A DNA stretch of 39,099 nucleotides from Phoronis australis (taxonomy: Eukaryota; Animalia; Phoronida): the NCBI GenBank assembly GCA_002633005.1, contig NMRA01001216.1:1-39099 (forward strand), in the 5' to 3' direction. The notes under the pieces are model-generated. The model saw only the letters and a program-made list of their open reading frames with translations. It ran no database searches and was not told the origin of the DNA. Positions 5,581-31,418 of this stretch are shown piece by piece. The stretch's first letter is position 1. Every line of letters starts with the position of its first letter. A program made the position numbers and the translations under genes.

Positions 5581-6823
5581 CTCCCAGCTTGCAGACTTAA
5601 GTATAGGCAATCTTTAACCCTTTCAATTGCGGAATGGCAATGAAGAAAAACACTGCATGATTAATTTTTTTATGGCAAAATCGCAACTCACTGTGTACTG
5701 GGAAACTTTAATACATATTATAAAGCATGTCCAAATAAGGTTGCTGCGAAAAAGCGAAGAGCACGGTAACATGGAAAGAGAGTATCGGGGATGCGAAGTA
5801 CATATATATTTTGGGTAAATATCGCTGGATCAAAGGGTGCGTGGTGGTATTTCGGGGTTTGCTTGTTACTTGGAATGTTCTACAAAGTTTCATATCTTGC
5901 ATTAATTTGGAACGTCTAGTTCAACTTGACAACAACACACTACCTGAAACTAGATGGCACGCATATGTGCTAAGATTGTCGCCAATTGATCGTGACTGTG
6001 TGTCACGCCTGGTACTTATCGAGAAAGTTTATCGTGTGTCTATCTTTTACTCAAATAAAACATCAAGTCACCATGCCAAAATCTTAAGTAATATTTTAGA
6101 ATTTCGAAATAAGGCGTCGTTTCATAAATGCAGACTATACATTTCATTTTTTGCGGTCAACCGCGATTCGATTGCCCGTAAACGACATATTCGACCTGTA
6201 ACGAAACATGTGCTTGTGTGGACTTGTATGGTGTATGTAAATGGTAGACTGGTGTGATGCAAGAATTTACCAACTCAGAAAATTAAACCCAAAATTTTAT
6301 AAAAACGATGAATATGGTGCATTTTGGGATATACTAAAACAAAAAGTGTATGACATACGATCAACTCTTTGTTTCAATGCAGTTTATGTAAACCCAGCAC
6401 TGAAGCAGCGTTGATTGACATTGGCGCACTCATGGCCGCTTTCCGAGACCAGGTCGACCTTAACAATAGCTTCATTTTAACTGGAAAGTTGCATTTTTCA
6501 ATTCATTTTTTAAGTTACTGAAGTCATTTGCAGACAAAACACTCAAAAATGTTCAGTAGGGTATTGAATACAAGTTTACAGTGAGGTCGACAGAACACAA
6601 ATTTTTTTTTGGAAACGGGCTGATTAAAGTGGTAGAGATAAAAAAAAATGTCACACGATTCCTAAGAAACAAAAAATATACGCATCAAACAAAAAAAAAA
6701 CAGTCAGCTGGATTACACTGGCAAACCCTTGAGTCAGGTCTCACCACAGTTTAAACTACATGTATGTATTAATAAAGCGAAACAGGATTTCGGGTAATCA
6801 GTGCAATGGGTCCATCAGAGAGG

Positions 6824-7012
6824 TCAACCGTGTACCAGACCGTCATTATAATAGTAATCTTTCGCTTCAGTGCTCAGATGGTTACCACGGAACTTGTTGT
6901 AAATATGAAGGGCCAATCCAGGAAATAATTGTGTGAAGTACTTGAAAAATTCCACAGCAGACTCGTCGAAGAATGTTCTAGGTCCAGACGTAAACTGATC
7001 GAAGTGGGTTGC
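6824..7012 (-). CDS. KEN terminal exon with catalytic His (ATHFDQF...EFFKYFTQLFPGLALHIYNKF...GLVHG*)
   Basis: Acceptor cctattttcag; 189 nt ending in TGA at 6826-6824. His falls at R+5 as in IRE1/RNase L; YFxxxFPxL motif. Confidence 0.93.
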   Translation of the reverse strand, partial: ATHFDQFTSGPRTFFDESAVEFFKYFTQLFPGLALHIYNKFRGNHLSTEAKDYYYNDGLVHG

Positions 7013-10000
7013 CTGAAAATAGGTAATTTAAGAAACATGCAATGGTCAGGAGATGTTACAAATTCAATGCACAGTTACTGTTGTTTTCATCTTTGTTGTC
7101 TCTTTTCAAGTAATACATTGTTACATTAAAAAGTGTTTCCTTTACTGCAGAAAACCTGCAGCCTAACGCACAAGTACTAATAATTAAGATGTGATCCGCC
7201 ACGTGAAGACTCTGAGTTAAGTATTTAAAAAATCTGCCGAAAGAAACTTAGGAATTCGAGGCGTATGGGATAAATACAAAATGCACCTCGATTGGCATAG
7301 ACGAAGTAAAATCCCACGAGACATTATTTGGCGTATCGATCTCCACCTCCGGTCTCGGTGGATACGCGGTATAATGTATCATGGGACTTTACATCATGTA
7401 AGCCACTGTCGGTACGTCTTCTGTACGTCTCAAATGCATTATTTTTTAGTAGTAAAAAGAGGCTCTGTACAAATATGGAGAAAGCGTGAAACAAGTGTAC
7501 ATGAGATAAAACAAGTTACATCACATCAAAGATAATTTCCATAGGGGCAAAAGGCGTGGTGTCCAGGTACATGACCATGTTTCCTAATTGATGGACAGAT
7601 TCTTGGTAACTATACCTTGTTGCGTATCAATCTTAAAAGCGCTGTTACGGATGAGTAGCAGTTTAAGATGTCCACAATCCTCAAATCCGTTTTCTTTTTT
7701 CCTTTATTCTTCTTTTTGTTGGATTCCGTTTGATTTTCCTCTTTACAGTAGTTATCTGTACCCAGAAAGTAAGAAAGATATGTTGAGGTCGTGGGAGCAC
7801 ACACCACATCAAGGATAATTTCCATAACAGCTCAATGCGTGATGCCCAGGTACAACCAAGTTTCCTAATTCACGATTTTGTCACTTTAAACGGATTATGA
7901 TAATTATACTAAATTGTGCATGAATCTCAAAGGCTCCGTTACTTCATAGCTGCTTTAGCAATTTCCAAGATGAACCTCCCTCTGCAATTCGACTTGTGTT
8001 TTCCTTCTTTCATGTTTCTCGAAATAATTTGCACAGAGAAAATAAGAACAAAATTTTTACGACGTCATACACATATTTTGTAGAAATGAACATATAATAA
8101 AGAACTGAAAAAAATATGTAAAACGTATTGCAAGAGAGCACACTGCAAGCGGCGGAATGTTCCACATTGGTGGTTTTATAGGGGGGACGCGGGGGACATG
8201 TACATGTACAGTTGTCTTTTGTTTTCCCAATCCTCAGTTATGCATCTGAATTGTGAGGATTCAAAAAAAATCGATGTATAGGGTAATGTTTTGGTTTAAG
8301 TCCATGAGCCTAAAAGGGTATAAAAACACGTTACTTTTGTAGAAAAAGTATTAAGTATTGAGTGATATGCCGGGATCTCACAAGAGTTTAATTTACCAAT
8401 AACTTACATAATCAACACAAAGACATTGCATATGGGTAATGCCGTAAAAACCCTCGGAGAAGGGAAATATAGAATCAGGGCTCCTGGAACATAGGGACGG
8501 AAAAGAAGGGGTGGGGGAACATTGGTTGAGGAGAATAGGGACCAGGGAATTAACGGACAGGGGAACTGAGGTACGGTTTGTGCTGATAGATAACAATCCA
8601 GCAAGTGCATAAACGCCATGCAAGATATGTTTTATCCAGTTTTGTTAAAAAACATAAACCGTGCACTTTGTTTAAATATATGAGTCCGTTTTGCCGTACT
8701 GCATATAGTTGCATATAGTTGTATTTCACTGGTTAATGTTCTATTATCCATACTTCCATGTAGCTTGCATTCAGCAAACACAGTACTTAAAATTGTCGTC
8801 TGCACTGTGCTAATGGAGTTAGTCACCAACAAAGTCACCCGATATCACGTCAAATGGTAGTCATTTGAGTGGAATTGCAATCCCAAAATACAATTTCTTG
8901 CTAAAAAAAACAAACGTTTACATCATCACATACTACATATTCCAGAACAATACATGACTGCATGTCAACTTTTCAAAAGGTAGAAACAGTTACCCAAAGG
9001 ACTTTCTTGAGTACATTTTGATGACTGTTCAGAAAACACGCCCATGGGCGTACCTTTGGTTGGGCCTATTACGGAAAGTCTCGATAGTGAGGGAAGTGTG
9101 AGACCACAATGATGCACAGATGATTGGCCACCATTGCGGCCACAGCAGTAAAGACAAGTATTGTTTCGGTTCGAAACGCGTAGATGAAACTGGATGCCGT
9201 ATGAACAGATCATAGTCAATGCATGACAAATGAAGAAACACATATCGTAGAGTAACCTGCATAGATGGTTTACAACTATTGGGGTAACTAGACAACATCG
9301 TTGTAAGTACATAGAACGGACGTGAGGAACATATTTCGGGAAATAACATCAAATTGAGGGTACCTACCGTTTTCCAGGGCTTTACAAAGTTTGGTTTGCC
9401 ATCCCACAAAATGATTAGCATCCTTTCCCGAATTAATTTTTTCAGAAGCTGAAATGTGATTCTCTGCGTCCCCATTGACGTTCTCAGAAACTTTCTGCAA
9501 AGGAAAATTCGTCTACACTTTGAACAAGTTGAGATTGTACGAGTCACTGAGAGCCAGACTAAGGTTTAAGAAACGAAATTTCTCAAAACAATCCTGTGTT
9601 TAAATATGCTCGGTGGGCTTATATGAGAAAACCAATCTGCTGATGCATACACTTATAAAAATAGACTATACATGGTTGAGTCCTAAAACTGTGTGGACCC
9701 CAAAACGTGACTAAAATTAACTTTTAATAGGCATTTCGAAAATCTTACTAAATAATACTAATTACGGTGTTTTGGTGAGGAAGCTGTCCCCGGAATTTCC
9801 CAGTTTCGCGCCGGGTTGTGAGCTTTAGGAAGTAATATGTGTATTTTCACTTGACAATGTACGTTTTGTTTATTGTGACTAAATTGAGTATACATTATTC
9901 ATAATTTCAGAGTTCCTTTGTTTTAAAATACTTGTAGATCATGCACTCACATACGCTGAGCCTTAGAGGGCGCTTTAAAAAACACAACATTAGCCAATCA

Positions 10001-13000
10001 GGATTTGAGAAATGAAACCAATTTCCGGAAGTCAATAGGTAGCACTGAACAGTTAGGCTGCAGCCACAGGGCATTTTCTAGTAGAATTTATGTGCAGGGC
10101 GTATGTCGGGTTTGGCTAGTTGTTCGAGGAATTTCTTGAAAACAAATGCCAGGAAACTGATTTACTAATGAGAAAATCCAAGTTTTTTAGCCGTGACCTG
10201 CTTTTGATGTAAAACGGTGGCTGTCGTTTGCTTTCAACCCCTGTCGCCTGCTGTCCGAGAAACCGAGTGCGCTGTCGAACAGATCAAAATTGCCAGAAAA
10301 GTAGCTGGTAAGGGGCATACTATGACCACAATTTTAAAATCTAGAGAGGGCAAGCATTCCGAATCTGTATTTGGATTTTTCCTAGCACTTTCGGGGAAGT
10401 AGCAATTTTGGGGAGAAAACTGTCAGATAATAATTTTGTTTCCGGGATGTTTTGCCGATGCCTATTAACCGATTAAAAATCTGTGATGTGGGTAAGTTCA
10501 GTTGTCACGAGTAGTGCTTGCGAGTTAGGAATGCTACAAAACCCTTTGTTTTTCAGAGACTCGATTAGCACGTGAGGAAAGGGTCCATCTGTACTTCGAT
10601 GTGTGTCAGCAGCCAAAAGCCTGTTGTAACGGTAGTGTGCGCCCTATAGGACGTTTCGAACAATTGTGGCTCCCCAAAAATGAAAAAAAAAACTAGGTTG
10701 CTCTGGTTTTGCGGCAATTTTGTGGAGTATATGCGCACTGATTACCATTTTTGGGGCACATCCATAGACATCTTATAATATAGACCTGGCGCACGCGCTA
10801 CAGCAGCTTGACGCCATATTGGAGGGTGCAACTAGTCACGTGACACGGCTACTTGCCGTGTAAACAAACGGGGCAAACTGTCCTTTTCAAAGCGCGATAT
10901 CTAACAAATTAAGAGGCCGAAGAGTGTGATTTTTTCAGAAACATACAAAAACATGTGCTGTAGCTCTTACAGGCGTTTTTTAAGAGTTAATCAGTCGATA
11001 AGGAAAATATCAAACTATTAGAAGATTGCAACTAGTGGTAGATTTTCGAGTGGCCTGAGCCGCTGGACGCCTGTCAATCCACTGCAAGCGTTTTATTTTT
11101 TTCGTTTTTTCAAGAGAAACCACTAAGATCGCGCATCTTTATCGTTTAATTCGTATCGGTCGATGCAAGTATAATTATATCCAGGAAAAGTGCCGCTCAC
11201 TCGGGACTATCTTCGTGGTGCCCCAATAAACCTTTTCACAGAGTGTTCAGGGAACAATGACTCCGGGTAACTTTGTAAAACTCAATTATTACCAGAGTCA
11301 CTTTAATGGGGTCTAAATTTAATGGGAAGTAGTTTGAAAATTGGCATCATTTGGGTAATATAAAACTGACAGTTTTTTAAAGTACATTAGGGGGTTCTCC
11401 CGTTCGGTACAGTGGTTGTGAGCCTGTGATAACATCTAGCTCCTTTGTTAACTGCCGAGCATATCGTCTTTTGTCTGGTACGACAACATGCAGATAAATT
11501 ATCTACCAGGCTTATAACCGATCACATTTGAACACAGTCAAACCCAGAACGTTGGTACGTTCGGACAAAATAGATAGTCTTAACTTCGATTGTAGCGACT
11601 TTGGTGTTTCAAAAACTATTAGCTTGATGGGAAATTCAGATATGTCATTGGTTTATGTTGAAGAATTTTATCACTTAACTCATTTTAAACAGCACAGCCC
11701 AGGGAGGATATAAGATACGATGTTATCGGAGATTAGAGCAATTAACGAACAAAGGATAGCTGACCTTCCAGCCCTAATTGCCAGAATGGACTTAATCCGT
11801 CGTTAGTATAAGATTTAGGCTACGGTGGTCATCCGCCCAACTTTTTGTGATTTTCAACGGGAAAAACGTTGTAACGTAAAAAACAAAGGACACAGACTCA
11901 GTTCCTTTCCCTGCATCGCCCGGAATTGCCATAAACAAATATTCTTCTATCACGCACGGTATTCCTTTCACGGATCTGAATTCCCCCCATCAAGCACCAG
12001 GAACTTGCTGGCGTTTTGTACTATCCCCATACCGTGTGCTCACAAAGAGATCAGATCCGCCCCGGCACACATTACTTCGGACTGCTCCTATCCATCCCCG
12101 CTCTTAATCTGATATAGGAACAGCACGACCCTCAGCCGAGAAATTAAAAATTAATTCTTCTCTCACGCACGCTGTCTGCTTATCCCAACCCCCTTTTGCG
12201 GGTTAACCGTTGAATAATGACGGAACAAGACGTAGGGTCATCTTTTCATGGGCTGAATATTCTTATTTTTCTGTGAAAAAACTAACCGGGTCATTTTTTA
12301 CGGAGTCACAAATACTGCTACATCGGCTCGGTTGGGTATATTTCCATTCGATTTCGAATGGGAAATTCCGTAATTTGGGTAAAGTTTGGATGCGCAATTC
12401 AGTCGTATAGGTTTGATATTTTGGTTACTATGCACTTTACTTTTTTGCGCAAGTTTCGTCACAAAACAGAGAGCTCGTAAGCAATCAGTGCAAATCTAAA
12501 AAAATTTCCAATATCAACTTAATAATAATAATAAGTAATAATAATAATAAACTTTATTTAAAGAGGATGAAAATACAATAAATGTAAAACATTCTTTAGC
12601 CAAAGGCTAATATCCAGCCAGGTCCTCTCCAGCAAGATATATGTAAAAATTTTGCAGAAATTTGTTTGTTTTTATACAACAGAAAACATCTAATTTTGCA
12701 ATACGTATTGAAAAATTATTTTTTAAGCAGTATATATTTCAATAAAAAATACACTATTCACGTACATGTACTGATTTCGATGCCGCGGCTGGCGAGTAAG
12801 TTCGTGGAAGTTATTTTTTCATTACAAGTAATAATACATATGATTGTCAACAACACTAAATATTTACTTAAATATAATTAGCAAACAGCATCATCATTGG
12901 ATAATAGCATATGGTGGTCAATAATTATATTTTTAATTGGTCTTATGTGGTCTCAATCACCAAGACTGATGTGGAAATAACGCATACAGTCGCTCCCGTT

Positions 13001-16000
13001 AAACTATGGTGGCAGAACATAAAAACCTAGTTGCAGCACCAATAAACTCCAAGGCCGAACCGAAAAACCCATGACTCATTGGCAGGACCAAAAAACTTAA
13101 CTCTGGCTGCAGGCATAACACTGCGAGCCCCCGCATTTTGTGACTGATGCCGTAGGGCTCCCACTGTTTTCCGCCATTTTTGTCCTGTGTAACACTCTCC
13201 AATATGTCGCCATATTGAGAACGCGAGCTGCATGTATCTGAGTGGCGCGCGCCCGGTCTCTGTGATGTCTATCGGCACATCCTTGTTCGGTGTTGCATTT
13301 TTAGCGTGAATCCTGGTACCCTTCAGACAAGTGGAGATTTTAAAAATTTTGGTTTGTAAGAATATACAAGCATTTTAACATAAATTTCCGGAATTTGTAC
13401 TGCAAAATAATTCGGATTTTTGTCGCATTTCTTGCACCGGTGTAGTCACGGATTTGCCACTCAGGGTAGAAGCTCAAAATTACAGTTTGTGGTCAATTTT
13501 GATATCCCAACTTTTTCGGTGAGTCTACAGCAAAGCAAAAATACATGGCTTCGTTAAATTTCTTTGAGAAACCACGTTGAATGTGTTTTCTCTCAGTTAC
13601 GTCTTTACTCAGTTGTCTTGAAAAAGGGTACAAACAAGGCTTCTCATTAACGCAGACCAGTAATAGTGTCAAAATCAGCTACTCGAACTGTGGTCTGTGA
13701 ACCGATTTAGATGTACACTGTACATCTCCAACAAGTACCAGAACAAGAGATCCTTGGCTGATAGAGAAAATACTTTTAAACAGTTCAGGTCAAATTATGA
13801 TAGCATTACTCTGTGAAAGGACAAAACAGTAATAACGATTTGGAAGCAGGTAAGACAAGTGTGAGGTGTACATGTATGTTGTTAATGGAGCTGCGTCAAC
13901 GTATAGCAAAAAAATTATTGGCATCGTTGATGTACATTTTACTCAAATATTTCTAAAAACAGTTTACGGTACCAAAGCAACTTTTAAGCACTTAAAACAA
14001 ATTTTGTCACGAAAAAAACTACACTTGTATTTATATGTAAATGAATTCATGAAATTCGTGAAAGGCACCAATCTTCATCAACTTTACCAAAAAGAAATCG
14101 TTTTTCAAGCAACTTGTTCATTACACATTTTATGGTATTGACTATGAGAACATTCCAATTGGCCAAAATGAGCAATTAAAGAGATAAAAATTTAAATTTC
14201 TATAACCTGTTGAATAGCGATCAATTTTCATTTACTGTTACGTGTTTCAGATGTGTCACTATTGATACTGAATGACTTTACTTCGATGTATAGAAGGGCA
14301 AAGGAAAAAAATCATGCATACTGATTGCGATATGTGATATGTCTGATGCAAGTCGACCAAAACTTAGCTAAAACTGGGATGCGCTTTTGCCCTACATATC
14401 TCTACCATTTGACTTATATTCCCTACTTCATTATGCTTTTATTTTAAAAGTTTCGACCCTTCCCGCACTAACAACGTTGGAACAAAAATTGAACACTTGT
14501 TTTGCATGAACATCAGTCCACGCATACCCTACCAATATTTGGTGCTGCGGTTGTTAAAAGATGTTTAGTATTCTGCTACTTCCACCTCACTGATATTTGC
14601 TGGTTTAACACTTTTAATGTGATCATAAGTGTTTTGTTATTTGAGAATAGGTTTTCGTCGAAAATGACACATTGTTAACAAAATGTATTTTAAATTTGTA
14701 TATTTTGCAATTTTTACAACGTACATTCCAAATTATACAACCATGTTCAAATCTAAATGAGTTATTTTTTTACAATTGAGCAGTACTGCTACATGTATGG
14801 ATGTGGTGGAAAAGACGCAGTGAGGCCTTGGGGTTTAAGTGTTTGCCTCATGTCCACGAGGTTGCAGATTCAAATCGCACAGGACCCTACTCCAGGAACC
14901 TTGAGACACTTCTCTAGCTACTAAGGCTGTCTTTATCTTTGTATGTACATGTATATGTATATTTCATGTGTTTATTAATGAATGAAATTAGCCTTACGCG
15001 TTTGTCGCAATTGGACCAGGTGATTGGCATGCGAATATCTAATGCAGCCTATACCAGACCACCTGTTATTTTTGAAGTGGGAATGTTTAAACGAAGTCGT
15101 CAAGTGAGATATGTTTTAAAACATCTACTGGGCCTGTGAACTCATTCCTCACGCCCAAATACAAGACCGACGTACATTTCTGATTGACTTTTGGTCCTTA
15201 AACAAGTATTTTTAAAATGTACATATCAACTTGCCACAGGAAAGTCCGGTATAAACTGCATTGCTTATGTATGTGAGAAAGTATATTACCTGAAAACCAT
15301 GTACATGGGGCTAAATCACAATCAAGGCCCATATTCGCAAAATGACTGTGTTACGGTCTATAATAAATCTCTTTGGTCACTTACCAAATGCCAATTGAGT
15401 CTCATATGCAAAGGGTTATTTTGTTGTGCAAAATCGGAAATGTTTGAGAAATTTATGAATGTTTTCGTCTATGAATTTCTTGCATTTTAAGCGTTACGAC
15501 TGGCCCTTTAAAAAATACAACTTTCAACTGTCAACAGTAGAAAAAAATATTTTATTAAGTAAGCAATTGCTTTGATATGACTGGGAATAACTTGAGTCAC
15601 TTTCAGAACAACTTAGACGAAGTTGCGCTTAATCATTGAGAAATGCTGTTCTCATGAATAACACTGGTTTTCCAAATTGCATCCAGTATGACAAAAAAAC
15701 AATTGACATTATGAAATTTGTGGGTAATAAAATGCCAAACAGGAGTTGGTTANGTTGACAAGTTGAACACTTGGCCTAACCATTTTGACCAACTGGTGGA
15801 TGTATTGAAAACTAGGCAAATAGGACCAATAAAGTTGTCTGTAAATAAATGGTTACTTGACATTTTCTTTTTGTAAGAATCACATTGCAAGAGAAGATCT
15901 CATTATACTGTGTTAAGATATGCAATGTGTCATCATCTAGCACAACTTATCATCACGGTAATTTTCCTTACTTAAGTATGTGATATTTCATAAATTTGAT

Positions 16001-19000
16001 TAAGAACTTATTAAATTAACAGCTACCTTATGAATTTTTGAATGATAGAAGTAGGATGTGAGCACAAGTTGTAGTGTACGTACCCTTTTATACAAATGTG
16101 ATGCATTAGGCCATAAAATTTTATTCGGTAGTTCTTGGGCAAAAATATTTTAGAGCACAAACCTGGAGTGATTGTACTTTAAAGTAACCCAGGTTTTACA
16201 GCTATATGACGACCTTCATTTTTCAACATAAGTGGCCACCGAATATGGACTTTGATTCTTATTTGCTCTGTGGTTAAGAGGTAAATGTGGGGGTTAACAT
16301 TTGGTTCCAGCTATAGTAGTTACTTGTCAGTGAGCAATTACTGGATACAATTAAATTAACAAGAAAGTCTCTCTTTTGGAAAGTATCGAGTGCTAGCAGC
16401 AATATTTTCCTCGTCAATATACAGTGTATATCAAAATTGCCATGCCTTCGCTCTTTGAGACGTGTATTCCTATAACGTAGTGACACACTGTGTAATTATT
16501 GTGTCCGTGTAGGAGGTGATTGAATGGTGTATCAATGGGATTGTATGAAACAAACCGTCAAGAACTTTAGCTGATCTTTTTCAGTCCAGAAAAGTGGATG
16601 TTTGAGAACCTCTTTAGCGCATGGTCTCTCCTTTGGTGATTCTTGAGTCATCTTTCGGACAAGATCGTTTGCGCATGCAAGTTCATGACCTACAAAAATT
16701 AGATGGGAACAGAAAATGTGTTAGCAAGAGAATATTTTCAATAAAGCTATGTTTGTCATTGCATTACTCGAACGGGCGTAATCCTTGATTTTGCATGTGC
16801 ATGAGGCGTGACACCAATATATTCCCAACTGAAATAAAACTCAAGATTCACCTTTATACATAAATTACATAAATTTTGTAATTCAGATATGTAGTACACA
16901 GTCAAGAATGTATTAAAAGCTAATTACAAATGCTTTCTAGAACCACAAAATATATAAAATATAACATAAAATCGTTCCAAAATATGTGTACATGTATACG
17001 CACAGTCAGACTTCGTGACGAGGTACTACATAACTTTAATTCAAACGATAGAAAACCCGAATTAGTAGCAGTGTTATGCCCATAGAAAATCCGTTCTCAT
17101 TGTACACCCCGGTACATGTTTAATTTGCGGGAAAAGTCACATTTTGTTGAAATTTGCCAAATTTATAATGGGAATTTATGGTTTGTGACAACATCGTAAC
17201 AAATTACACTCCTCCAAAGTGGTCGCAGGATTCATTTTATAAGTTTTCACAGGTAACCTACGGCCAGAGGCTTACAAAATTCAAATCCTATATCGTCGGT
17301 CAATTGCTTCCTCCACTACTCGTTCACCAACAAATAAAAGTCCATTCAAATCTGTCATCGGTGACAACCCACACGTGAACTTCGCAGTAGGATTTTATTT
17401 CCCGAACATGAGGCATGTCACTGTTATCAAGTCTACCTGATTGTGAGACAAATGCGATTAAAAAGCAGCCAGAGATTATGGTGACACAAAAATAAAGCTT
17501 AAAACTCCGACGAATGTTGTGGAAAGCTCAAGCGATTTGCTCAAAACGAAATCGCCGGATATAGTTGATTTGTCCTAATATCCTGGTTTGGGAACCTATT
17601 GTATTGGAGAAACATGTACATCATTAACTCAAAGTGATGAACACCCTTGAGACTACAGACATTTTGCCTCAAAATATTAAACTTCTAGAACACTACTGCG
17701 CGCATAAAACCACTGAAACCATTACCACAATGCCTCATTCCAGAAAAAAAATCTGCCTTTACGGTTTCCTTTCTGCGATAGCTCTTTTTTGCACGGTACA
17801 TTCAGGGAGGCAGTAATGGTTTTACATGTAGATTCCTACACTAGGGTACCAGACAAACAAAGAGACTTCATCCCTTTATGGAGATGAGCATCCCACATGA
17901 GGAGTATCATAAAACTAACTACTCACTGCTTTCTTCGTAGGGATGACGTAAAACGTCCGGTTCTTTGGTCGCAAAATACAATTCAAGTATAACTTTACCA
18001 ACAGCAAAAATGTCATCTGAAGACGTCTGGAAGAGAGCAGAGAAACTAGGCGCATCTTTATTAAGTTTCGGCTTGAGACAGGGCAGTGTATTATGAAAAT
18101 CTGCAAATGTAGATGGATTTCAATAAAAATCAGCAGGGATGTTGTTTTTGATATGGCAATCACAAAAAATCATTTCGAGAAAAAAAATAGTCGGTTGCCT
18201 TGGCAACGCCAAAAATTACGTAACATTGGTACATCCACGAGAAACGTTATAAGTCATTGAAATAATCACAGAAGAACTATCAGACCACGAAAAATAAAAT
18301 AATAAACTAATCAGTTTTTAGTGAACATTTGAGCCTCTCCATTTCCAGTTTGACCAGAATATGTTGAGACAAAGTCCGTTTGGCAACTATGCTCGTGAAG
18401 TAGGATTGCAAGACTGCAACACATATAGTTTGTGAAGGGACACTTAAGTTGACTTGGGTCCATTAACACTTACTCGTGCAGCTCTGTAAAACCAAGTAAT
18501 GCTCTGCAACCCTCGTCAACAGTCACAAGTTTTTGCAAGGCTTGGAAAAATTTTCAGTCTTCGAAGTTGGCAAGGCCGACCCACAGTTAAGGAGAGTTAC
18601 ACAACAGTCTTAGGAAAAGGCTATCCCCAAAAATAATATCATAAATGTTGTTACGCTGTGTGTGTGTTTTTAATTGAATCCTGTTTGTAATATAGAAGTG
18701 ATACACCAATGGTGCAGTAACAGAACTATTATTATTTGAAATCTCCAAACATCGATAAGAATCAGGGTCAGATCCAGGATTTTGAGTTGGTGGAGGGGCA
18801 GGGCAGAGTATTAGCCAGGATTTTGCCCCTCAGACATTCGCCCCCCCCCCCAACTGTCACAAGGGATCTGTGAAAATTTAGGAGGCCATCGCCCCTTCGC
18901 CCTCTCCCCTTAAATTCGCCACATAGAATCCATTTAGCATTGGCACCAGTGTAAACAGCTCAATCAACACGCGAAAGCCAGCAGTTGAAGAAAACCGTAC

Positions 19001-22000
19001 ATTTCCACCTTCATATACATATATGTGAGTTTGTCATATTAGGGTCTCGCCTGACATACATGTATAGTATTTATGCGTAATGGCAATGAATCAAAAAGAA
19101 GTGTGTTTCGATTTCCGCCTTCTTAGTAATACTAAGTTTGAATTTGGGAATTAAAGGATTAAATGCCGTTATTTACAATCACGAAATGACGGCCATTAAC
19201 CTAAACATGTTTACGAGACATTATTTGTTTTGCCACATGATTGAAATATTGCCCTGGTCTTATGTGCCCGGTTGCATGAAATAGTCCTATATAGGGACCC
19301 AACTAAAGTCTTTTTTGTGTATTTGTGCCTTTGTGGACTCACGGATACAATATTTTTCTATCATTTCACCTTTAGTAAGAGCTCTTCTTTGTTTAATGAC
19401 TTTTTCTAATAATTTGAATAAAAACTGAACCCAGAGTTCATTGAAAATAAAAATTGATTTAGTCCTTAAATTGGGGGTGTTGCTTGAAAAGATCCCTAAA
19501 TATTTTCGATGATATTAGCAATTTAACTTTTATCAAAATCTCTTGGTCTATTTACACTGACCTCTAGTCTACACTGCCACGACGTTTCAGTCGGTATATT
19601 CTGTGGCCATTGTCAGGTGTTCCCGCGTTCTTAGAAGAACGAGCACGCATATGTACGAATTATATTATACTCAAACCTTTCTAAGTAGACTGAGCCAGGT
19701 TTCACTTGGTCGTTTGCTTGGCTGACTGAAGACACTGCCTTGTGTTTTCATGTAGATGGCTTCCTTGATCTTTGTCTTGGTCAACTTGTTTCACTCTCAA
19801 GTATTCGGATGTTATTCCGCTGAATATTGTGTTGTTTCGACGTCATGTGTTCTGCTACTCCTGATGAGGTATTACGCTCTCTACAACACATCTTATGTTC
19901 AGCAATTCTCGTCTCCAGTGGTCTTAATGTGTCACCGATATATGATTCACCACATTCACATAGGGTTTCATAGATGACATTTTTCTTTTCCCCATGTCAG
20001 TTCTTTGTTCGACTTTTGACAATTGCCGACCCAGTGTGTCTGACCTGCAGTATACTGTTCTTATTTTAAATTCGTTACATATGCGTCCTGGCGTCTCGAT
20101 TATTCCGGGTATATATGGAAAGCACATAGTCTGCAGGGGGCGTTCTTCTGCCACTTTCTTTTTTCTCTGCGATGTTAAATCCGACTTGATGAAATCCCTC
20201 GGTTTGCCATTTCTTTTGAAAGTCTCCGACAGGTTGGCCGTTTCTGCTTGGAGTGCTGTATCACTGCAAATTTCTTTTGATCTTGATGCAAGGCATTTGA
20301 TTAAACCACTCTTGACTCCTTCGGTGTGGTTGTGGTTGTTGCCAAGATATCGTCCTGTGTGGGTCTTACAGTAGACTGAAGTTGTTAGCTGTTCTTCAAC
20401 ACGAGTCACTAGTACGTCTAGGAATGGGAGACTGTTATTTGTCTCTTCTTTCGTTGTGAATCTAATTGTAGGCGATATGCTGTTCAGATGGTCAGGGAAC
20501 TCTGATGGATTTTCTGAGTCTTGGCTGAATATTGTAAATGTGTCATAAACGTATCGTTTCCACATCTTCTGGGGTCTGTTAGCTGAGCTGAGAGGAGTTT
20601 GTTCAAACCACTCCATGTACAAGTTAGCTAAGACTGGTGATAGTGGTGAACCCATTGCCATTCCTTGTGTCTGCTCGTAGAACTTGTCTTGGTATTGGAA
20701 GTAGGTGGTAATGACACAGAATGCCACTAATTCCAAAATGGAGTCTATTGGGAGGTTTACATCCTCTGATGGCTTGTGGTCATGTTCCAATTTTGACCTG
20801 AGTAATGGGATGACCTCTGATGTTGGTACACTTGTGAATAGGCCTTCGACATCAAAGCTCACCATGGTGTCATTTGGTGCAATGCTGACTGATGTAAACA
20901 TTGACACGAAATGCTTAGAGTCCTTTACGTACGAGTCAGTTTTTCTAACTAATGGGGATGTGATAATGTTGAGGAATCTAGCTAGTTGGTGACAGGGAGA
21001 ACCAATGTTGCTTATAACTGGTTTCATTAGCATATCAGGTTTGTGTATCGTAGGTTTACCATACATATACAGGGCTTTTGTGTTGTTTGGATTGATTCTC
21101 TGGAGTGTGTCACGTGGTAATGAGCCTTCTACAGTTTTCAGGAGGGATTTGATTTTTCTTTCCACGCTCTTGGTCTTGTCAGACTTTACTTCCTTATACT
21201 GACCATTGCATAGTAGATCAGTCATCTTCCTGCTGTAGTCATCCTTATCAAGTACTTATGTTGCATTGCCTGTGTCAGCTTGTAGAATGATGATGTTTTC
21301 ATCCCATGATAGGCTTCGTAGGGTCATCTCTTCATACCTGTTTAGGTTGTTTCTTGGCATTTTTGTTTTTGGTGAGTGTTTATCTACACTTAACACGTAA
21401 GGTTTCCTTATCAGCAGCTGGTAGCTTGATGGTGGCTGCTTTAATGCTGGCTACAACATCCATTGTTGGCATTTTTTTCGGTCGGATGGCATAGTTCAGA
21501 CCTTTGGACAGAAGTTGGGATTCGGCAACTGTCAGTTTTCAGCTTGACTTATTCACAACCACAGGAGTTATTTGCATGGCTTGATCCAGAGTCTATTTGC
21601 CCACTTTTAACGATTCCGTTAATGTCCCTTTATCACGAAGGCCAAACACAAACTGTTTGTGATCATGTTGAGATTTTCCCCATAGCTGCAATGCAATGGC
21701 AACCGCCGCAAATCGTCAATGAAGTCAGTGACAATCTCCTGCTCTTTCTGAGCTCGCATGGTAAAAGGGAAAACGTTCCGAGATTTCCAAGGGCTCAGGT
21801 TCAAAATGAGATTCTATCAACTTCACGCGCATTTGTTTTGTCCTTGGGAAGATCTGGGTGATCAGGCTATGCAAAATTCCATAGGCATCCTGCCCCATGT
21901 AGGTAAGAGTTGCCAAGACCTTCTTATCGCCTTCAATGTCATTTAATGCAAAATACTGCAGGGTACGTTCGACGTAAGTACTCCAAAGATCAGTAGAAGA

Positions 22001-25000
22001 ATCAAATACCTGTAGATTCCCTAGATGGTTCAACATCATCGCCAATTTGCCTTTAATCTGGGGGGCTCAAATTTCTGACGATGTCGACACAAAGGCGGCA
22101 GGGGACTAAAAAACCGGGATACCACCTTCAGGAATGTACACTGTGCGTCTGCGCCTTTTGGTGGACTTTGTCTCGTTTTCTAGGACTTTTTGTTTCTCTA
22201 TGGCGGACCTTTTTTCCCGCTTCGCCAAATGAGGGACGCTCGTTCAAGCACCCCAACCCCCCGAGTGCACGCATGGTTCGTGATGCTTCTGTTTGGTCCT
22301 CTGGGTGTAGGATGTTTTCGCTAGTTTACCCTCTAAAAACTTTGTAAGCACACCTCTGTTTAGGTGCTGTGCAAATTCAGGATGGTCTGTGAAACACTTC
22401 TTCGCTTCTCCAAGAAGGTGTTTCATCTGCGGAATTTCGTGGCAGCAAACGCAAGCGTCAGTCGTTTCCATTATCATGCAGTTAGCTCACTTTTACCATG
22501 ACAACTCATTCAAACCGTTTTCGGAACCATGTATCCATATGTTCCGTTGTCTGTGCACGTTCACGGAGCCTCTCTATTATTTCTTGATCAAAATACTCCG
22601 GTTCGATCTAGCTGATAGCCTGTGAAACAACGATCAACCTGTGAAGTCTTAGTCGGAGGAGCACTAGTCTAAGTCGGGATTGAGAGTTGCCACATTGACA
22701 TTTATTATTGTGCGCTCTGTTTCACAATGAAATATTCTCACCCTAAACACTGCTTATATAAAACTGAAACAAAATATGTCTCATTAGATACAATCTCTAA
22801 TGCCGTTGAGTGTTCGTGGGTGCAAATGTTTTGAAAAGCCAGCAATGAATAAATTATTGCTTTAGCGGCTTTAGATGCCGGTAATAAACTAATTGACTGG
22901 ACACCGAGGCCGTGTGAGCGAATGCTAATTCAGGGTTGGCTGACAGAAAGCTGTTGAGAAACAATAACTCGACTTTATATCGTATGGTCACATGTTAGGG
23001 AAATCTTTATTTAGACATTCATATACATTATTCGAATCTTTGTTACCACACAACTTTCACCCTGCCGGTTCTGACTTCACGAACCCGGAAGAGCAAGTAA
23101 GTAGATTTGAAGTTCGCGACTAATTCACCAAAATAATCACGTGTTATTTATATTTCTTTGGCTCACTATCATAGTCTTTTCGTGACTGGAAATTTGTTTT
23201 CAACTTTGGCTGGTTTATGTTCGTGATGCCTTTAGTCGGGCCGTGACGGGCCTGATCGGATTCTGAGCCACTGGCTGAGGATAGCAAGCATTTTGTGTGT
23301 TTAGAACTGAAAAACTCGCAAGTCAAAAACTGCAACACGCAGCTGTCTGTATTTCACGGACAAATAATTTGAATTTATCACCGAACAAATCCCAAACTCC
23401 CGCGACCGACCTTGGTAACTTGGACTACCAAACTTTGTAGGTTACGGTACGTTCAAGCGCCTAAAAATCCGTAACAACAGAGAAAAAAATAACACGTTTG
23501 TTCAATAACTCGATGTATTTGTAAGGGTTTTAGATCGAATTTTGATGATTAATTGGTGCGAAAGGATGATTTCAAGCGATAAGCTGGCACCACTAAGCGT
23601 GTTGTGAACTGCTGAATAGACTGCATTCGAGCCTCTGACGCCACTGGTTAATTTCAACACATCCGTCTGCCGTCAGGTGTCATGTAAAAGAGCTGTGCTT
23701 GTTGTTACCGAGTGGAACTACTCGATCTAAATTGATACAAACTAGGTTGTTTTTTGGGTGACATTTTCCTTTAAGCATACGCACTTTTATTCATTCCTGT
23801 TGACAATTATCCTAGTACATCGCCAATAAACATGGCGAAGAGGGTGTGTGACACAGCGCCACTGTTACGTGTGCAACAGGTGGAGGAAGCCGTCAGACTT
23901 CAACCTGAAGACAGGTATTCACGAAAAACCTTCTGGTAATTTTGACTTTCTACCTGATTACGCTGTTTCTCGGCTTGAGGTCACTCAGAGCTACTTGGTT
24001 AAAACCAGACTGGTCATTGCGAAAGACACAGAAAGCAATTTGTTTACTGAAAACTGCCTTTCAAATCAATCATACAGAAGATATAGAGCGGAATCAGTGG
24101 AAAAGTCAGTTTTTATCAGCATGATGATGGTTATGATGCCTGTTAAGAACACCGTGTTAGTCCAGATGCCGCAGCAGAATGAGCCTTGTGTGCCCTTCCA
24201 GAATGACAGACGGTGGACCAGAGGCCCACAATCAGCCAGCAGGTATGAGTTCTCCATTAGTTTATGAACGATCATGACCCTAGATTTTGTTCATATTTTA
24301 GAGTACAACCTAGTCAGAGACAGTCTTTGCAAATTTCAAAAGGTTTGACGTAATCATATCTTCAACATCAGCCTTTGCTGATGGTTCAAAATCTCCTGGT
24401 GTCATCAATGTAAAAGCGTTTAATAGACGTGACTTACTACATGTACATGTATATTAGTTCATAAAATAATGACATCGAGTACTTCCCCAGAGGAGTGGGT
24501 GAGACAGACATTCTTGTTTTGGATAAAAGGTTCCTAACTTTTTAGCACTTCAATAAGTCTTGTAGAGGCCTTGTTCGTGCCACTGTCTAGGCCATTCTAT
24601 AAGAGGATAACTCGTAAATGCGCTCCTCTGAAGAAGGACTTTACCGGTGCCTGTGCTAGTCGAGATCATCAGCCTTAACGTCATTGAATCAAAGTGGGAC
24701 CCATTGAAGGGTAGCAGCAAACCTTTTCGTTACAAGTCTCACTCGCTTGATTTGTAGTGTGAGGCCGGGTTTGTGGGGCTCGTTTTACGCCATCTGAATA
24801 CGGCTCTTGAGGTGCTGCACACCCCCCCCCCTCCTGCAGTGGTGGATTACCATCTTTTGAAAAAACACAAAGGTGCCTAAGTTATTACTTGGTGACACTT
24901 GTATAAGGGAGCTTTTTATTTTAGCCACTTTGATAAGTCGGATGTCCCCTTAATAGCCTGCCGTTATTCGATCCCATATTCCCAAGCTTCCTCTGCCCTA

Positions 25001-26181
25001 CCAGTGAATCTTCAGTTCTCTTCGTGTTTTGTCCATATAAGATCGAAGGACAGGATAACTCTGGGTAGTATATTTCTTTCTTCTTGTCCCATTTAACCAA
25101 CACATTCGAAGGCTTGATGTCGCCGTGTACTACAGAAAAAAAAAATCATTTGTAAAACGCGTAACATGGATGTTGTTGTATGCAGGAAATATCGCACATA
25201 CAAGGGCTCTTCGGAATTTCAATTCTTAGCACACGTGTCTATTGTTTGAGCGCTTTTGTCCTTTTAGTCTTGACCTTGAAAATGAACAGATGCATGTTTG
25301 GACATTCAGAATAGCTCTGTTGTTGTTGAAATATGTACATGTATGTGATGCTATTCTGTTTCATTGCGACCGGAGAGTGGCTTTAGGAATCAAACTCCGA
25401 TCAAAAATCTTAATTTGTCGTCTTGAACGCAAAGAACCTAAGGTTGTGCACGATAGATCTTGTCATATTCGGACACTACCTGCTTAAAGCAGGCACTTTT
25501 GCAAAATAATAGAAATAACACAATGGTGGACTCCAGTACATGCACAGAAACTGAAAGATTTCTTTGATCAATGCACGTATGTATTATTAGTTTCCCAAAC
25601 TAATAAACTAATTGAAAGACAGATATAGAAATATGCAAATTATAAAATAATAACAATAACAATAACGAAAACGATATCAGTATCAATAATGACAATGCAT
25701 TTTTCAAACTGCTTATTCAATACCATACGTTGTTTTACTATTTACGTCACATTATATTATTTTTCATTTATAAAAAATATGGCCAAAGCCACATCCTCAC
25801 TTGCTTCAATACACAAATTGCGCGTACAGTGATAACGGATCGATTTATATTCGTAACACAATATTGAGAAAATAGGACGGAGAAAACAATGCCAGTCCTA
25901 CCTATGTGGCCGTCATGCATCTTGGAAATTGATTCGATCAATTCTTTCAAAAACTCTGTGTACTCAAAGTCCCTGAATGTTTCTAAAGTAGCTGCATACA
26001 TCTGTAAGAAAAGGAAAATGAGTAGCTAATTTTGAGGTTAAGTAAAGCACAGACGACGTTTTCATTATAAATTTAATATAAAAAATAATCGAATATTTTT
26101 GTCTCACTTTAAATGATTTTGACAACAGGCCTTGCTCAAAAGTTTGTAAAGTTAAAACCGACACCAAATAGTTACACGTAA
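6824..26181 (-). CDS. Spliced gene, 5' end unresolved: IRE1/RNase L-family (pseudo)kinase + KEN ribonuclease protein. Exons 26181-26108 (probable), 26001-25902, 25129-25002, 18026-17927, 16689-16556, 9494-9368, 7755-7616, 7012-6824
   Basis: Manual splicing at GT-AG sites gives matching phases at every junction; exons from 26001 down total 918 nt = 305 aa + TGA. Motifs appear in canonical order: MYAATL, IVHGDIKPSNVLV, DDIFAVGKVILEL, ANDLVRKM..PKERPCAKEVLKHPLFW, FVGWQTKL, YSSVTALLRLIRNKATHF, FFKYFTQLFPGLALHIY. Confidence 0.9.
7165..7262 (-). pseudogene. Decayed tandem paralog of the KEN terminal exon (ASNS*VSFGRFFKYLTQSLHVADHI)
   Basis: FFKYLTQ...A.HI aligns with FFKYFTQLFPGLALHI at both protein and DNA level. 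Has a stop, deletions and an acceptor reading ac. Confidence 0.65.
7522..7870. repeat. ~65 bp imperfect direct repeat (7522-7589 and 7805-7870) flanking KEN exon 2
   Basis: cacatcaaRgataatttccata...ccaggtaca...tttcctaatt occurs twice about 283 bp apart. Confidence 0.9.
7616..7755 (-). CDS. KEN exon 2 with catalytic Y/R/N (DNYCKEENQTESNKKKNKGKKKTDLRIVDILNCYSSVTALLRLIRNK)
   Basis: Acceptor ctttctgggtacag; donor aag|gtatag; 140 nt, phase 1 to 0. SVxxLLRxIRNK KEN motif. Confidence 0.92.
7910..8028 (-). pseudogene. Decayed tandem paralog of KEN exon 2 (xYFEKHERRKTQVELQREVHLGNC*SSYEVTEPLRFMHNL)
   Basis: Same phase (1 to 0) and similar donor (gtataa vs gtatag). NC*SS..VT..LR...N aligns with NCYSSVTALLRLIRN. 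Acceptor reads caa instead of cag. The adjoining intron is duplicated too (7805-7870 vs 7522-7589). Confidence 0.8.
9368..9494 (-). CDS. KEN exon 1 (KVSENVNGDAENHISASEKINSGKDANHFVGWQTKLCKALEN)
   Basis: Acceptor ttttcctttgcag; donor g|gtaggt; 127 nt, phase 0 to 1. FVGWQTKL resembles RNase L FDKWTTKI. Confidence 0.88.
10782..13259. mobile_element. Putative ~2.5 kb non-autonomous DNA transposon
   Basis: Left agacctggcgcacgc matches the reverse complement of the right end (agaccgggcgcgcgc) at 13/15. CpG-rich subtermini; no intact ORF; no clear TSD. Confidence 0.4.
12521..12550. repeat. (AAT)n microsatellite
   Basis: aataataataataagtaataataataataa. Confidence 0.9.
14814..14935 (+). mobile_element. 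Decayed tRNA-derived SINE head
   Basis: A-box-like gaggccttgggg and B-box-like gattcaaatc at tRNA spacing; does not fold into a clean cloverleaf. Confidence 0.45.
16556..16689 (-). CDS. Exon, kinase subdomain XI and start of KEN (SHELACANDLVRKMTQESPKERPCAKEVLKHPLFWTEKDQLKFLT)
   Basis: Acceptor ctaatttttgtag; donor acg|gtttgt; 134 nt, phase 1 to 0. RP.A.EVLKHP.FW is the IRE1/RNase L kinase-KEN junction signature. Confidence 0.93.
17927..18026 (-). CDS. Exon, kinase subdomain IX (TSSDDIFAVGKVILELYFATKEPDVLRHPYEES)
   Basis: Acceptor ttctctgctctcttccag; donor a|gtgagt; 100 nt, phase 0 to 1. DIFxxG motif. Confidence 0.9.
18763..18924. mobile_element. Small MITE related in termini to 107-422
   Basis: cagggtcagatcc ... 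aaattcgccacat, flanked by agaat on both sides; G/C-run interior. Confidence 0.5.
19540..21600 (-). mobile_element. Decayed Penelope-like retroelement: N-terminal region + RT + GIY-YIG endonuclease + 3' pLTR remnant
   Basis: VVNKSS*KLT...LLSKGLNYA; RT ORF 19924-21225 with MVSFDVEGLFTSVP, GMAMGSPLSPVLANLYME, RYVYDTF (YVDD mutated) and LPFLDVLV. Frameshifted GIY-YIG NVIYETLCECGESYIGDT.RPLETRIAEH...KIKEAIYM at about 19676-19985. Confidence 0.93.
19575..19620 (-). ncRNA. Degenerate Penelope-type minimal hammerhead ribozyme motif
   Basis: Minus strand ctgacaat-ggccacagaatataccgact-gaaacgtc lies just 3' of the GIY-YIG, where PLE hammerheads sit. The CUGANGA core carries a G-to-A change. Confidence 0.5.
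21620..22052 (-). mobile_element. Ty3/Gypsy gag relic with PBS-like sequence
   Basis: GNLQVFD...WSTYVER..QYF.LN...MGQDAY.IL, HFEP...ISERF.F, Q...E.VTDFIDDLRRL..HC.Y across frameshifts; ttggcgatga at the start resembles a Gypsy PBS. Confidence 0.8.
22244..22520 (-). pseudogene. Cys-rich P2X7 C-terminal (ballast)/Kolobok KolX-like domain relic
   Basis: LSW*K*ANCMIMETTDACVCCHEIP...KCFTDHPEFAQHLNRGVL matches the WCxCxxCxxMxTxxExxCCxE...CxTxHxxF...LNxxVL pattern, with two Cys positions now stops. Confidence 0.7.
22732..22912 (+). repeat. Dispersed repeat, copy 1 (copy 2 at 38932-39099)
   Basis: Colinear blocks tattctcaccctaa, tgtctcattaga, tgcaaatg, aagccagcaatgaataaat, aaactaattgac.ggacaccgaggccg. 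Confidence 0.9.
25002..25129 (-). CDS. Exon, catalytic loop VIb and degenerate VII (VHGDIKPSNVLVKWDKKKEIYYPELSCPSILYGQNTKRTEDSL)
   Basis: Acceptor ttttttttttctgtag; donor ctg|gtaggg; 128 nt, phase 1 to 0. HxDxKPxN motif present; no DFG. Confidence 0.92.
25902..26001 (-). CDS. Exon, kinase subdomains V-VIa (MYAATLETFRDFEYTEFLKELIESISKMHDGHI)
   Basis: Strong acceptor ttttccttttcttacag; donor g|gtagga; 100 nt, phase 0 to 1. Resembles IRE1 LCAATL...LAHLHSLNI. Confidence 0.9.
26108..26181 (-). CDS. Probable exon, kinase subdomains IV-V (xTCNYLVSVLTLQTFEQGLLSKSFK)
   Basis: aacag acceptor with a weak pyrimidine tract; aaa|gtgaga donor; phase 1 to 0, in frame with MYAATL. Spacing from YLV to MY fits the HPNVI...ELC segment of IRE1-type kinases. 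Confidence 0.6.
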
Positions 26182-27290
26182 CTGTTAATTTATTTTAAGT
26201 TAATTTCAAATCCCTATTTACTGGCCTCCATTCTAACTCGTATATTAAAAAACCTGGCTTTGCTAACTACTGAAAGTTAATATTTTATGAAAGAAAATGT
26301 ATTTTGTAGTCCCAATATTAATACTGCAAGAACACTTTTTAAGTCAAAACTTCATTCTAAGAAAGATTAATTCATAGCAAAACATCCCCTCGGTCGATTT
26401 AAAAGAAAACTTTTTGATGAAAACTTCTGTCACCAGTTGCCTCAAAAACGTTGTTGGGGTGGGGGGCTGAGTACATGATTTTAATTCTTTATCAGCCTGT
26501 GGAATACTAATACGTCGCAGAAGGCTTAAATTTCGGATTCAATAAATGATCAACTGATTTTATTAAAATGAAAACAGTCGATGTCATGAGGAAAATCATA
26601 AATCATGTTGGTGCAATTTGACCTACATGTAAGTGCAAGTCGAGTTGAATATGGACGGACCGGAACGACCCCCATTTGAGGAGGGGCATGTTTTCCTAAG
26701 TTTACAGCTTAAGTTTATCAATTAAGTATTGCAGTCGCCTGTTCTGCTATTACGGCGCATGATATGTTGTGAGAATTTACATGACTTTCCTTTTCCCGGA
26801 AGAAACTTGCTTTGAAGCTCACTCTAATATCTCTGGAATGTCAGCCAATTAATACCAATTTTTAATTTTATTAAGACTACGTGGGGCTGCTCATGAAGAC
26901 CATAACAGTATCTTTATGTTCACACTTTAAATGGGTTATATCTGGAATTTGATAAAGCTTTAACACACTGCTTTGTTTGTTCATATCTCCACATTGACAT
27001 TAGGTCTCTATCAGCTAGGTGGAGCACTTGGAAGAGCAAGTGGACATCCAAAACACAAACATCAGAACAAATCACCCACAGTGGTGGTATCGGGCTTTCT
27101 ACACCCAAACTGGTAGACTTTATATTTTTCATTGTTTGGTTAAAAAATAATTGTGCCAATATAAAACTTCTTGGTTCTGATGAGTTTCAAAATGTAGAAG
27201 CAAAAGTATGTGCGATAACAAAACTAAGATCTATCCCTGGTAGTGCCTGTTGAGTCTCCATGTAACATTACTAAGGGAACACTTCAGGGC

Positions 27291-30305: not shown

Positions 30306-31284
30306 CTCCAATACAAGTCATAATAAACTTATCAAACTTAGGCTCACCGATCTGTTCATTGGATGATGAACTGTCCTCTTCGCTGGGTGTCGAACTGGGC
30401 CTGTATTCACTCCCACTACTCAACATCGCTGCAGGGTTGCTTACATGATGTAATGAGTGGAAGACGTTTGGTCAATTGACAATCAACTTCAATGGCGGAA
30501 CTCATTATATCAGAATACGAGGACGATTTTGAATGAATTCAATTTCCGACTTTCCTTGGCTTTGAAGCCGTATCAATTCGATTCACTTGGACGGGAAATT
30601 ATGCAGACACATGTGAGCCACAACCAATTGAACCAAGAGGTGGTCAAATTTTATCAACGGAAGTGTCATTGACGTCACACCTCATTACGTAATAGGCTTA
30701 AGCAGACTCGTTAGAGAGGCACCTCGATGCAAGATCAAGGTCATGAGTGTAACCAGGAACGTCAATAAACCGGAAGGATGACGAGGTCGAATTGGAAATC
30801 ACATGACTGCTGGCGTGATCAGGCAGGTTAGGGCGTGGCACCGTTTCAATATCCGGACACTAAAAAGACATTTAGTATTTCGTGTTTGAAGAGTTGAACT
30901 GGTCGATACCCGAAACAAAGTAAGGATTACGCTGGTGAATAAGAACAAAGTGTGGATTACCTTATTTTGCGTGGGCCAAGCGTCGTCGTTGTAGTACGCT
31001 ATATTTTAGCAGTAAAACAGCAATTTCATTTTGGTGAACATGTCTATAAAGAAATAACTCGCGCATGGTGGTGAGTAGTGAGTCCGGTACAACACGTGAG
31101 GATGGCTGTGTAGTAGTTTTTGCTCTCAAACTCAAAAGTAGCCGTTTCAAAATGGAAGATGGACGGAAATGCAGGCAGTTGACGAAAACGGCCATTGGGC
31201 GGGGAGTAAATGACTGAGCCAGGAATTCACTTGCTTAACCTTTTCTTACTATCATGTAGCTCTTGCTTGACAGTACACATGTAC

Positions 31285-31418
31285 TTTTATCTCCTCTTTT
31301 TCGAACCACTCATTAAAGCGTTTTATGAGGCTCGGTTTCTTTTCATGAATGTTTTCATCGTTGGTTTCTACTGCTTCCCAAAACTTCCATTTCTTCATAA
31401 TTCTAAAACTTCTGAGTC
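31285..31418 (-). CDS. Candidate upstream exon of the kinase-KEN gene (GLRSFRIMKKWKFW...NEWFEKEEIK)
   Basis: ctcag acceptor; aaa|gtacat donor; open, phase 1 to 0. By-eye likeness to RNase L YRPMIGKLKFF...YEKQEV. No phase-compatible linking exon to 26181 was found. Confidence 0.35.

Follow-up and report, generated by a model that had tools for sequence, protein, structure and literature searches.

The 39,099-nucleotide (nt) contig NMRA01001216.1 of the phoronid Phoronis australis, called the window here in its whole length, carries on its minus strand a gene in which a kinase fold is fused to a KEN ribonuclease domain, as in IRE1 and RNase L. Reading of the minus strand joined seven exons in phase, from 26001 down to 6824. 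The joined exons comprise 900 nt, i.e., 299 codons and a stop, without internal stop codons, and the 299-residue product consists of the kinase C-lobe and the KEN domain. All six introns (603-7061 nt) are of the GT-AG type with pyrimidine-rich acceptors, and the open frame and canonical splice sites have been kept over 19 kb despite transposon insertions. The gene is real, spliced and transcribed.

Exon 1 (25902..26001; 100 nt, phase 0 to 1) is an internal exon that runs from the helix E region to the Val preceding the catalytic loop. Exon 2 (25002..25129; 128 nt) holds the catalytic loop, the DFG position and a truncated activation segment; exon 3 (17927..18026; 100 nt) holds helix F with its DIF motif and a shortened helix G region; and exon 4 (16556..16689; 134 nt) spans kinase helices H-I and the first KEN helix (HPLFW). 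The rest of the KEN domain is divided among exon 5 (9386..9494; 109 nt), with an FxxWxTK motif, exon 6 (7616..7755; 140 nt), with a lysine-rich insert, Tyr224 and the catalytic helix ending in R235-N236-K237, and the coding part of exon 7 (6824..7012; 189 nt including TGA), with the catalytic His240 and the last KEN helices. The 3' untranslated region (UTR) occupies 6604..6823 and extends further. A preliminary description, made from the letters alone, had counted seven to eight in-phase exons; seven in phase were retained and an eighth was not. Its upper limit of 26181 belongs to no exon, being the edge of a short dispersed repeat with a heavy read pile-up (bins 26140-26475).

The fusion proposed in that description is borne out by matches to Pkinase, Ribonuc_2-5A and IRE1, which represent the kinase by its C-lobe only. 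Exon 4 retrieved IRE1 structures at the top of the PDB (E 2.5e-8, 36.6 bits), the best 16 matches all being IRE1, and matched Pfam Pkinase with an E of 0.0046. Exon 7 matched Pfam Ribonuc_2-5A (E 2.3e-4; 21.8 bits, slightly below the cut-off of 23.3), and the Pfam scan gave no relevant family in the other six stretches scanned. Exons 5, 6 and 7, taken singly, had no PDB match at E 10, and the ESM Atlas returned no more than weak bacterial leads for exon 7. Against a profile built from 18 kinase-KEN units, the joined model scored 130 bits; in a six-frame scan of the window with that profile, exons 4, 2, 6 and 7 were the top four hits.

The kinase part has lost motifs of an active kinase. The catalytic loop reads HGDIKPSN, with HGD for HRD; C-P-S stands at the DFG position, and APE is absent. 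These features were compared in 39 aligned units, with five near-identical cluster mates left out. A DFG-like motif was kept in 33 and an APE-like motif in 35 of the 38 other units. The loop His and the helix F Asp lie 46 residues apart; the others have 52-96, and this activation segment is the shortest of the 39. Only two of the other units lacked both DFG and APE; they are the two kinase-KEN units of a single plant (Rumex) protein and have a shortened segment too, so such traits arise convergently. Judged by these residues, the kinase is likely a pseudokinase. RNase L keeps canonical nucleotide-binding residues and has a non-canonical C-lobe (PMC4718504).

The RNase domain looks intact, and cleavage of RNA is predicted. 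The preliminary description had read a Y...RNxxxH active-site pattern, of which the R-N-x3-H motif is exact (R235-N236-K-A-T-H240); in the HEPN Rx4-6H motif, the Arg, the polar residue and the His are catalytic in KEN (PMC3710099). KEN motifs could be parsed in 39 of 50 units, leaving 11 unparsed. Of these 39, only the model has FxxWxTK, a motif that pig RNase L also shows; the shorter W-x-x-K is present in eight of 39. Relative to IRE1, the KEN domain carries a 22-residue lysine-rich insert. By eye, it also has IRE1-like features: V-S after the first helix, D-L-R, S-V, R-N-K and Y-F-T.

Transcription was followed in four runs matched by species label, X1 to X4, with X4 as contigs and X1-X3 as reads. 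One X4 contig (depth 54.5) passes from 7616 over the intron straight into exon 7 and on through the 3' UTR as far as 6604; at this join a single base, the first of the exon, differs from the genome. Another X4 contig, of depth 16.7, aligns over 25002-25126 and breaks off from the genome precisely at the exon 2 donor. The X4 depth in the exon 3 bin is 2.16, which equals 16.7 x 86 / 664, i.e., the unplaced 86 nt of the exon 2 contig; a direct join of exons 2 and 3 is implied by this depth arithmetic and is not a listed joint. X4 depth in the exon 5 bin is 9.32. Exon 7 received 42 reads in X1 and 22 in X2, with none at that place in X3, all with the first mate on the plus strand; the raw reads on exon 2 (3 and 2) had the first mate on the plus strand only. 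In most stranded libraries, this orientation corresponds to minus-strand RNA. Exon 1 was covered by X3 reads on one strand at a depth of 1.48. As a separate observation, the exon 6 contig of X4 goes back 81 bases at 7675-7755, with a 6-base deletion, which suggests that another allele or a paralogue repeats the lysine-rich insert in tandem.

The introns point to the origin of the gene. A scan of metagenome contigs gave 37 loci, including spliced animal IRE1 genes, and the model was projected on one alignment with four of these. Its six introns share the phases 1,0,1,0,1,0 with animal IRE1, and four of the six fall at the same alignment column (at the Val that precedes HxD, at the Thr that precedes helix F, and behind QLxFxx and RNK); the remaining two lie next to indels. 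The 3' boundary of exon 4 is common to 16 of 17 IRE1-type exon fragments. Exon 1 agrees in length and phases with its counterpart in L001, a vertebrate-type ERN1 locus; in L002 that exon has 97 nt, and the intron before exon 1 is absent from the invertebrate-type loci L008, L010 and L013. Taken by itself, this pattern would hint at a deuterostome host. In a plant IRE1 locus, none of the six positions is interrupted by an intron. These animal-IRE1 introns indicate that the gene is likely an IRE1 duplicate. The coding region of RNASEL consists of one large exon, which holds codon 462, and exons 3-7, with five coding introns that all follow codon 462 (PMC2361943, PMC2424240); RNASEL therefore cannot share the set of the model, which has six introns and an upstream boundary in its C-terminal part alone. 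RNase L may itself come from an IRE1-like gene that lost introns; the introns thus argue more strongly against plain orthology than against a stem position.

Identity between the model and five animal IRE1s is 25.5-27.5%, against 48.0-67.5% among those five. This distance, together with the loss of HRD, DFG and APE, agrees with the earlier judgment that the protein is too divergent for a canonical IRE1, and the gene is, by its sequence, not the canonical one. Two trees, one of 35 selected rows, from which six similar ones had been dropped, and one of 27, with RNase L absent from both, placed the model outside the supported cnidarian ankyrin, octocoral tandem, leucine-rich repeat (LRR) and animal IRE1 groups. 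Holding it inside animal IRE1 cost 1.41 log units and was not rejected (approximately unbiased test, p 0.447); the model behaves as an unplaced long branch. No close relative was found when exon 4 was searched against 1.84 billion representatives (38 matches, none above 58% identity), and word-based searches with exons 7 and 4 among longer proteins gave no homologue, which is weak evidence. A protein search aimed at RNase L returned 34 matches, none named RNase L, and those with a species name were cnidarian. The gene is undescribed in the literature searched, which left most subscription papers outside its coverage, and a literature search for RNase L mutagenesis papers found none.

The model shares with the cytosolic module of animal IRE1/ERN1 (PDB 4pl3, 4z7g) the domain order, the HPxFW junction, R-N-K-x-x-H, YFTxxFP and the intron phases. 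It differs from it in an identity of about 26%, in HGD and C-P-S, in the deletion of the activation loop, APE and part of the helix G region, and in the 22-residue insert; the luminal and membrane parts were not seen in the window. With vertebrate RNase L (PDB 4o1o, 4oau), it has in common the pseudokinase and KEN, FxxWxTK, I-R-N before the catalytic His and, in the pig enzyme, a basic loop. RNase L, in contrast, keeps the metal-binding Asp and binds ATP, and its exon structure is different; exon 4 is less similar to it than to IRE1. No ankyrin repeats or site for 2',5'-oligoadenylate (2-5A) were seen in the window, where no ankyrin search specific to the upstream part was run. The anatomy resembles that of RNase L, but the tests for RNase L membership that were run came out on the negative side.

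Across eukaryotes, a kinase-KEN fusion is already known from proteins other than IRE1 and RNase L. The class is less hidden than the preliminary description implied, since database records, cnidarian and other, commonly include such proteins, many of them with ankyrin repeats. Many ankyrin-, LRR-, tetratricopeptide repeat (TPR)- and tandem kinase-KEN proteins were found in the databases; examples are cnidarian ankyrin-kinase-KEN proteins (Exaiptasia KXJ10098.1, Actinostola, Paramuricea), an octocoral tandem protein (Xenia XP_046855943.1), LRR-kinase-kinase-KEN proteins and the fish protein KAM7366186.1. Like the model, these families evolve fast and lie outside IRE1 and RNase L; most of them keep DFG and APE, their identity to the model is 20-27%, and it falls in none of the clades that were sampled and supported. 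RNase-domain proteins have been sorted into ten clades, with RNase L confined to jawed vertebrates and independent gains of ankyrin repeats elsewhere (PMC10400998). Yeast assays from the same source showed no coupling between RNase L and OASb, which also occurs outside jawed vertebrates; the two enzymes tested were vertebrate OASb. Aplysia is reported to be without an OAS-RNase L axis (PMC9334734). In P0055 and its relatives, which are cnidarian-type ankyrin-kinase-KEN proteins, the KEN domain matches RNase L first in the PDB (E 0.012, with IRE1 unlisted), and this family may be the better candidate for invertebrate RNase L relatives. Another protein, P0014 from an ENA contig, combines predicted LRR, a membrane helix, a tandem kinase and KEN in a receptor-like RNase architecture.

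We favor, at a probability of roughly 55%, the reading that the gene is a fast-evolving duplicate of an animal IRE1 gene that turned into a pseudokinase RNase, acting as a dimerization-switched nuclease for broad RNA decay in stress or immunity. Its resemblance to RNase L is probably convergent. The observed part of this scheme is a spliced, transcribed open reading frame with IRE1-type introns. The kinase would carry out no phosphotransfer and be under no activation-loop control, because the metal-binding Asp and the loop are gone, and its fold would serve as a scaffold. By analogy with the IRE1 and RNase L structures, two copies may pair back to back, with R235, N236, H240 and probably Y224 forming a composite, metal-independent site that would cut single-stranded RNA. 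In the weakest step, the switch would be an N-terminal module beyond the window, and the output would be bulk RNA decay instead of XBP1 splicing; a separate canonical IRE1 would keep the latter. Protomer alignment has been reported to set the promiscuity of IRE1 (PMC8104961). Sea-anemone genes offer a precedent for immune use of such paralogues, as Nematostella genes called RNase L are induced by cyclic GMP-AMP (cGAMP) and poly(I:C) (PMC8713801, PMC8476169). If this reading is true, the gene would be a clear case of IRE1 duplicated and rebuilt as a kinase-dead nuclease, traced by its introns and parallel to RNase L, and a natural test of whether KEN switches without the activation loop and DFG.

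Several points weigh against the favored reading. The model begins mid-kinase, and no N-lobe, sensor or start codon was found within the window; a search of the 13 kb upstream with a profile of 45 N-lobe sequences and an animal IRE1 profile gave no N-lobe exon (best E 1.1). The gene may continue past the window, or the N-lobe may be too diverged or lost. In the free tree, the model has no settled place and sits at the end of a very long branch (3.33 changes per column). In the KEN domain, the acidic residue of the D-L-L motif of IRE1 and RNase L is Ala, and the Tyr lies 11 residues before the Arg, where 33 of the 38 other units have 13 and pig and human RNase L have 12; this half of the Y...RNxxxH pattern fits only with a small gap. 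The preliminary description had looked to RNA-seq for the junctions and the 5' exons. Among the joints listed, one of the six junctions is directly spliced, in one contig, and apart from the implied second the other four are unlisted; the 5' exons were not recovered. Exon 4 is almost without RNA coverage. RNA matches to the exons are 87-96% identical and therefore may stem from a close paralogue rather than from this gene. Finally, nothing ties the gene directly to immunity, and the immune role is a prediction by analogy.

Other explanations share part of this evidence. The gene could be an IRE1 paralogue anchored in the endoplasmic reticulum, keeping the luminal domain and membrane helix and working there as a decay-type nuclease or as a dampener of canonical IRE1. 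Its intron pattern is that of a DNA-level IRE1 duplicate, which could have carried the 5' exons too, and with introns of up to 7 kb these exons can sit beyond the 13 kb upstream. We consider this possible but unlikely: the complete front end of an IRE1 appears in none of the Pfam lists of the non-IRE1 kinase-KEN proteins retrieved, which carry tandem units or ankyrin, LRR or TPR repeats, and an identity of about 26% where conservation is best points to an altered role. It is improbable as well that the IRE1 duplicate is truncated or decaying and is transcribed without yielding a working nuclease, although a decayed copy of exon 6 adjoins the live one, no N-lobe was found and the exon 2 variants fit such a fate. 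In X4, 11 of 12 changed codons of exon 2 (from 13 of the 16 differences listed) are non-synonymous, indistinguishable from the neutral expectation of 75% (p 0.16); in X1 and X2, three of four are, and three catalytic-loop residues are altered, including the loop Lys. These variants are consistent with relaxed constraint or with paralogues. Against decay stand the open frame and canonical splice sites over 19 kb and the intact catalytic motif, and in X4 conservation is higher for exon 6 than for exon 2 (5/140 against 16/125 differences; Fisher p 0.006, on two different contigs). That the gene is the sole canonical IRE1 of the genome, unusually diverged, is very improbable: the introns are of the IRE1 type and IRE1 is the best structural match, but HRD, DFG, APE and the 48-68% identity of animal IRE1s are all lost.

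Kinship with RNase L needs closer weighing. Among the RNase L-like traits listed in the preliminary description, the lost DFG, the short activation segment and FxxWxTK are present, but the special link to RNase L and OAS is unsupported, given the IRE1 introns and the match of exon 4 to IRE1. An invertebrate gene that is sister to vertebrate RNase L, or its precursor, and is switched by 2-5A or a similar nucleotide signal would account for the sharing of FxxWxTK with pig RNase L alone among the parsed units, for the lysine-rich loop of the pig enzyme at the same place, for the short activation segment (that of RNase L itself is short) and for the intron before exon 1, which is common to the two vertebrate-type loci and absent from the three invertebrate-type ones. 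An ankyrin-free kinase-RNase ancestor, inferred in PMC10400998, also fits. We nevertheless find this relationship doubtful. RNASEL has five coding introns against seven boundaries in the model (PMC2361943); RNase L was absent among the 60 matches listed for exon 4, down to 17.8 bits; and the KEN domain of the cnidarian family, not that of the model, matches RNase L first. Moreover, RNase L keeps nucleotide binding whereas Cys replaces the DFG Asp in the model, no lysine run of equal length is present in the stretch of human RNase L that was compared, ankyrin repeats were not seen in the window (in scans not specific to the upstream part), and the RNase L clade is reported only from jawed vertebrates (PMC10400998). 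It is equally doubtful that the gene survives as an intermediate form linking IRE1 to RNase L, i.e., an invertebrate gene with IRE1 introns and the pseudokinase, short segment and FxxWxTK of RNase L, which would be a nuclease effector of a nucleotide second messenger without the vertebrate pathway. If true, it would represent the ankyrin-free or early ankyrin-bearing RNase L precursor inferred in PMC10400998 and be a candidate effector for invertebrate OAS enzymes.

The decayed copy beside exon 6, a tandem duplicate that also includes the intron downstream of it, lies at 7800..8066 (minus strand), with the exon-like part at about 8028-7910. It has an in-frame stop and no acceptor AG; its local alignment score is 186, against 57.5 +/- 8.1 in 300 shuffles, and it was at the top of the window-wide exon scan. 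The copy reads R-F-x-x-N-L where the live exon reads R-L-I-R-N-K, nearer to the wording of RNase L. Some candidate additions to the gene model were rejected. An alternative exon 3 acceptor at 18100 would not keep the frame when joined to the donor at 25001, and the open frame 13493-13678 is unneeded as an extra exon, the join of exons 4 and 5 being already in frame. Within intron 2, no phase 0-0 exon passed the splice filter and the profiles detected no activation-loop exon. A kinase-like stretch at 24549-24457 (E 0.027) was dismissed as a decayed copy, with a DNA score of 33.5 against 31.5 +/- 5.7 for shuffles and no reads. The surrounding intron stretch 24310-24550 (minus strand) shows kinase-end-like and KEN-like wording; it is not transcribed, and its DNA is no more similar to exon 4 than shuffled sequence is. 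Upstream of exon 1, a purine-rich frame of 65 residues at 31252-31449 (minus strand) is a possible exon in phases 2 to 0, and its part at about 31430-31310 has, by eye, the phases of an N-lobe exon; the frame had no profile support, and the ESM Atlas gave nothing for 31255-31449.

Mobile elements are scattered through the window. Intron 2 contains at 19700-21540 (minus strand) a decayed retroelement, which we take to be Penelope-like, with a 443-residue reverse transcriptase frame (RVT_1, E 4.5e-7) followed by a GIY-YIG-like stretch. Two transposon-like fragments on the minus strand have weak Pfam matches only; that at 21725-22066 presumably resembles the gag N-terminus of a long terminal repeat (LTR) retrotransposon, and that at 22244-22486 presumably a cysteine-rich, P2X7-tail-like transposon protein. 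At 38379-38810 (plus strand) lies a DUF5641 domain (E 1e-31), which is typical of the ends of Bel/Pao LTR retrotransposons. Stretches 1-913 and 1600-2512 form a near-identical (98-100%) direct duplication, about 1.6 kb apart and flanking an N gap, which may be an assembly artefact.

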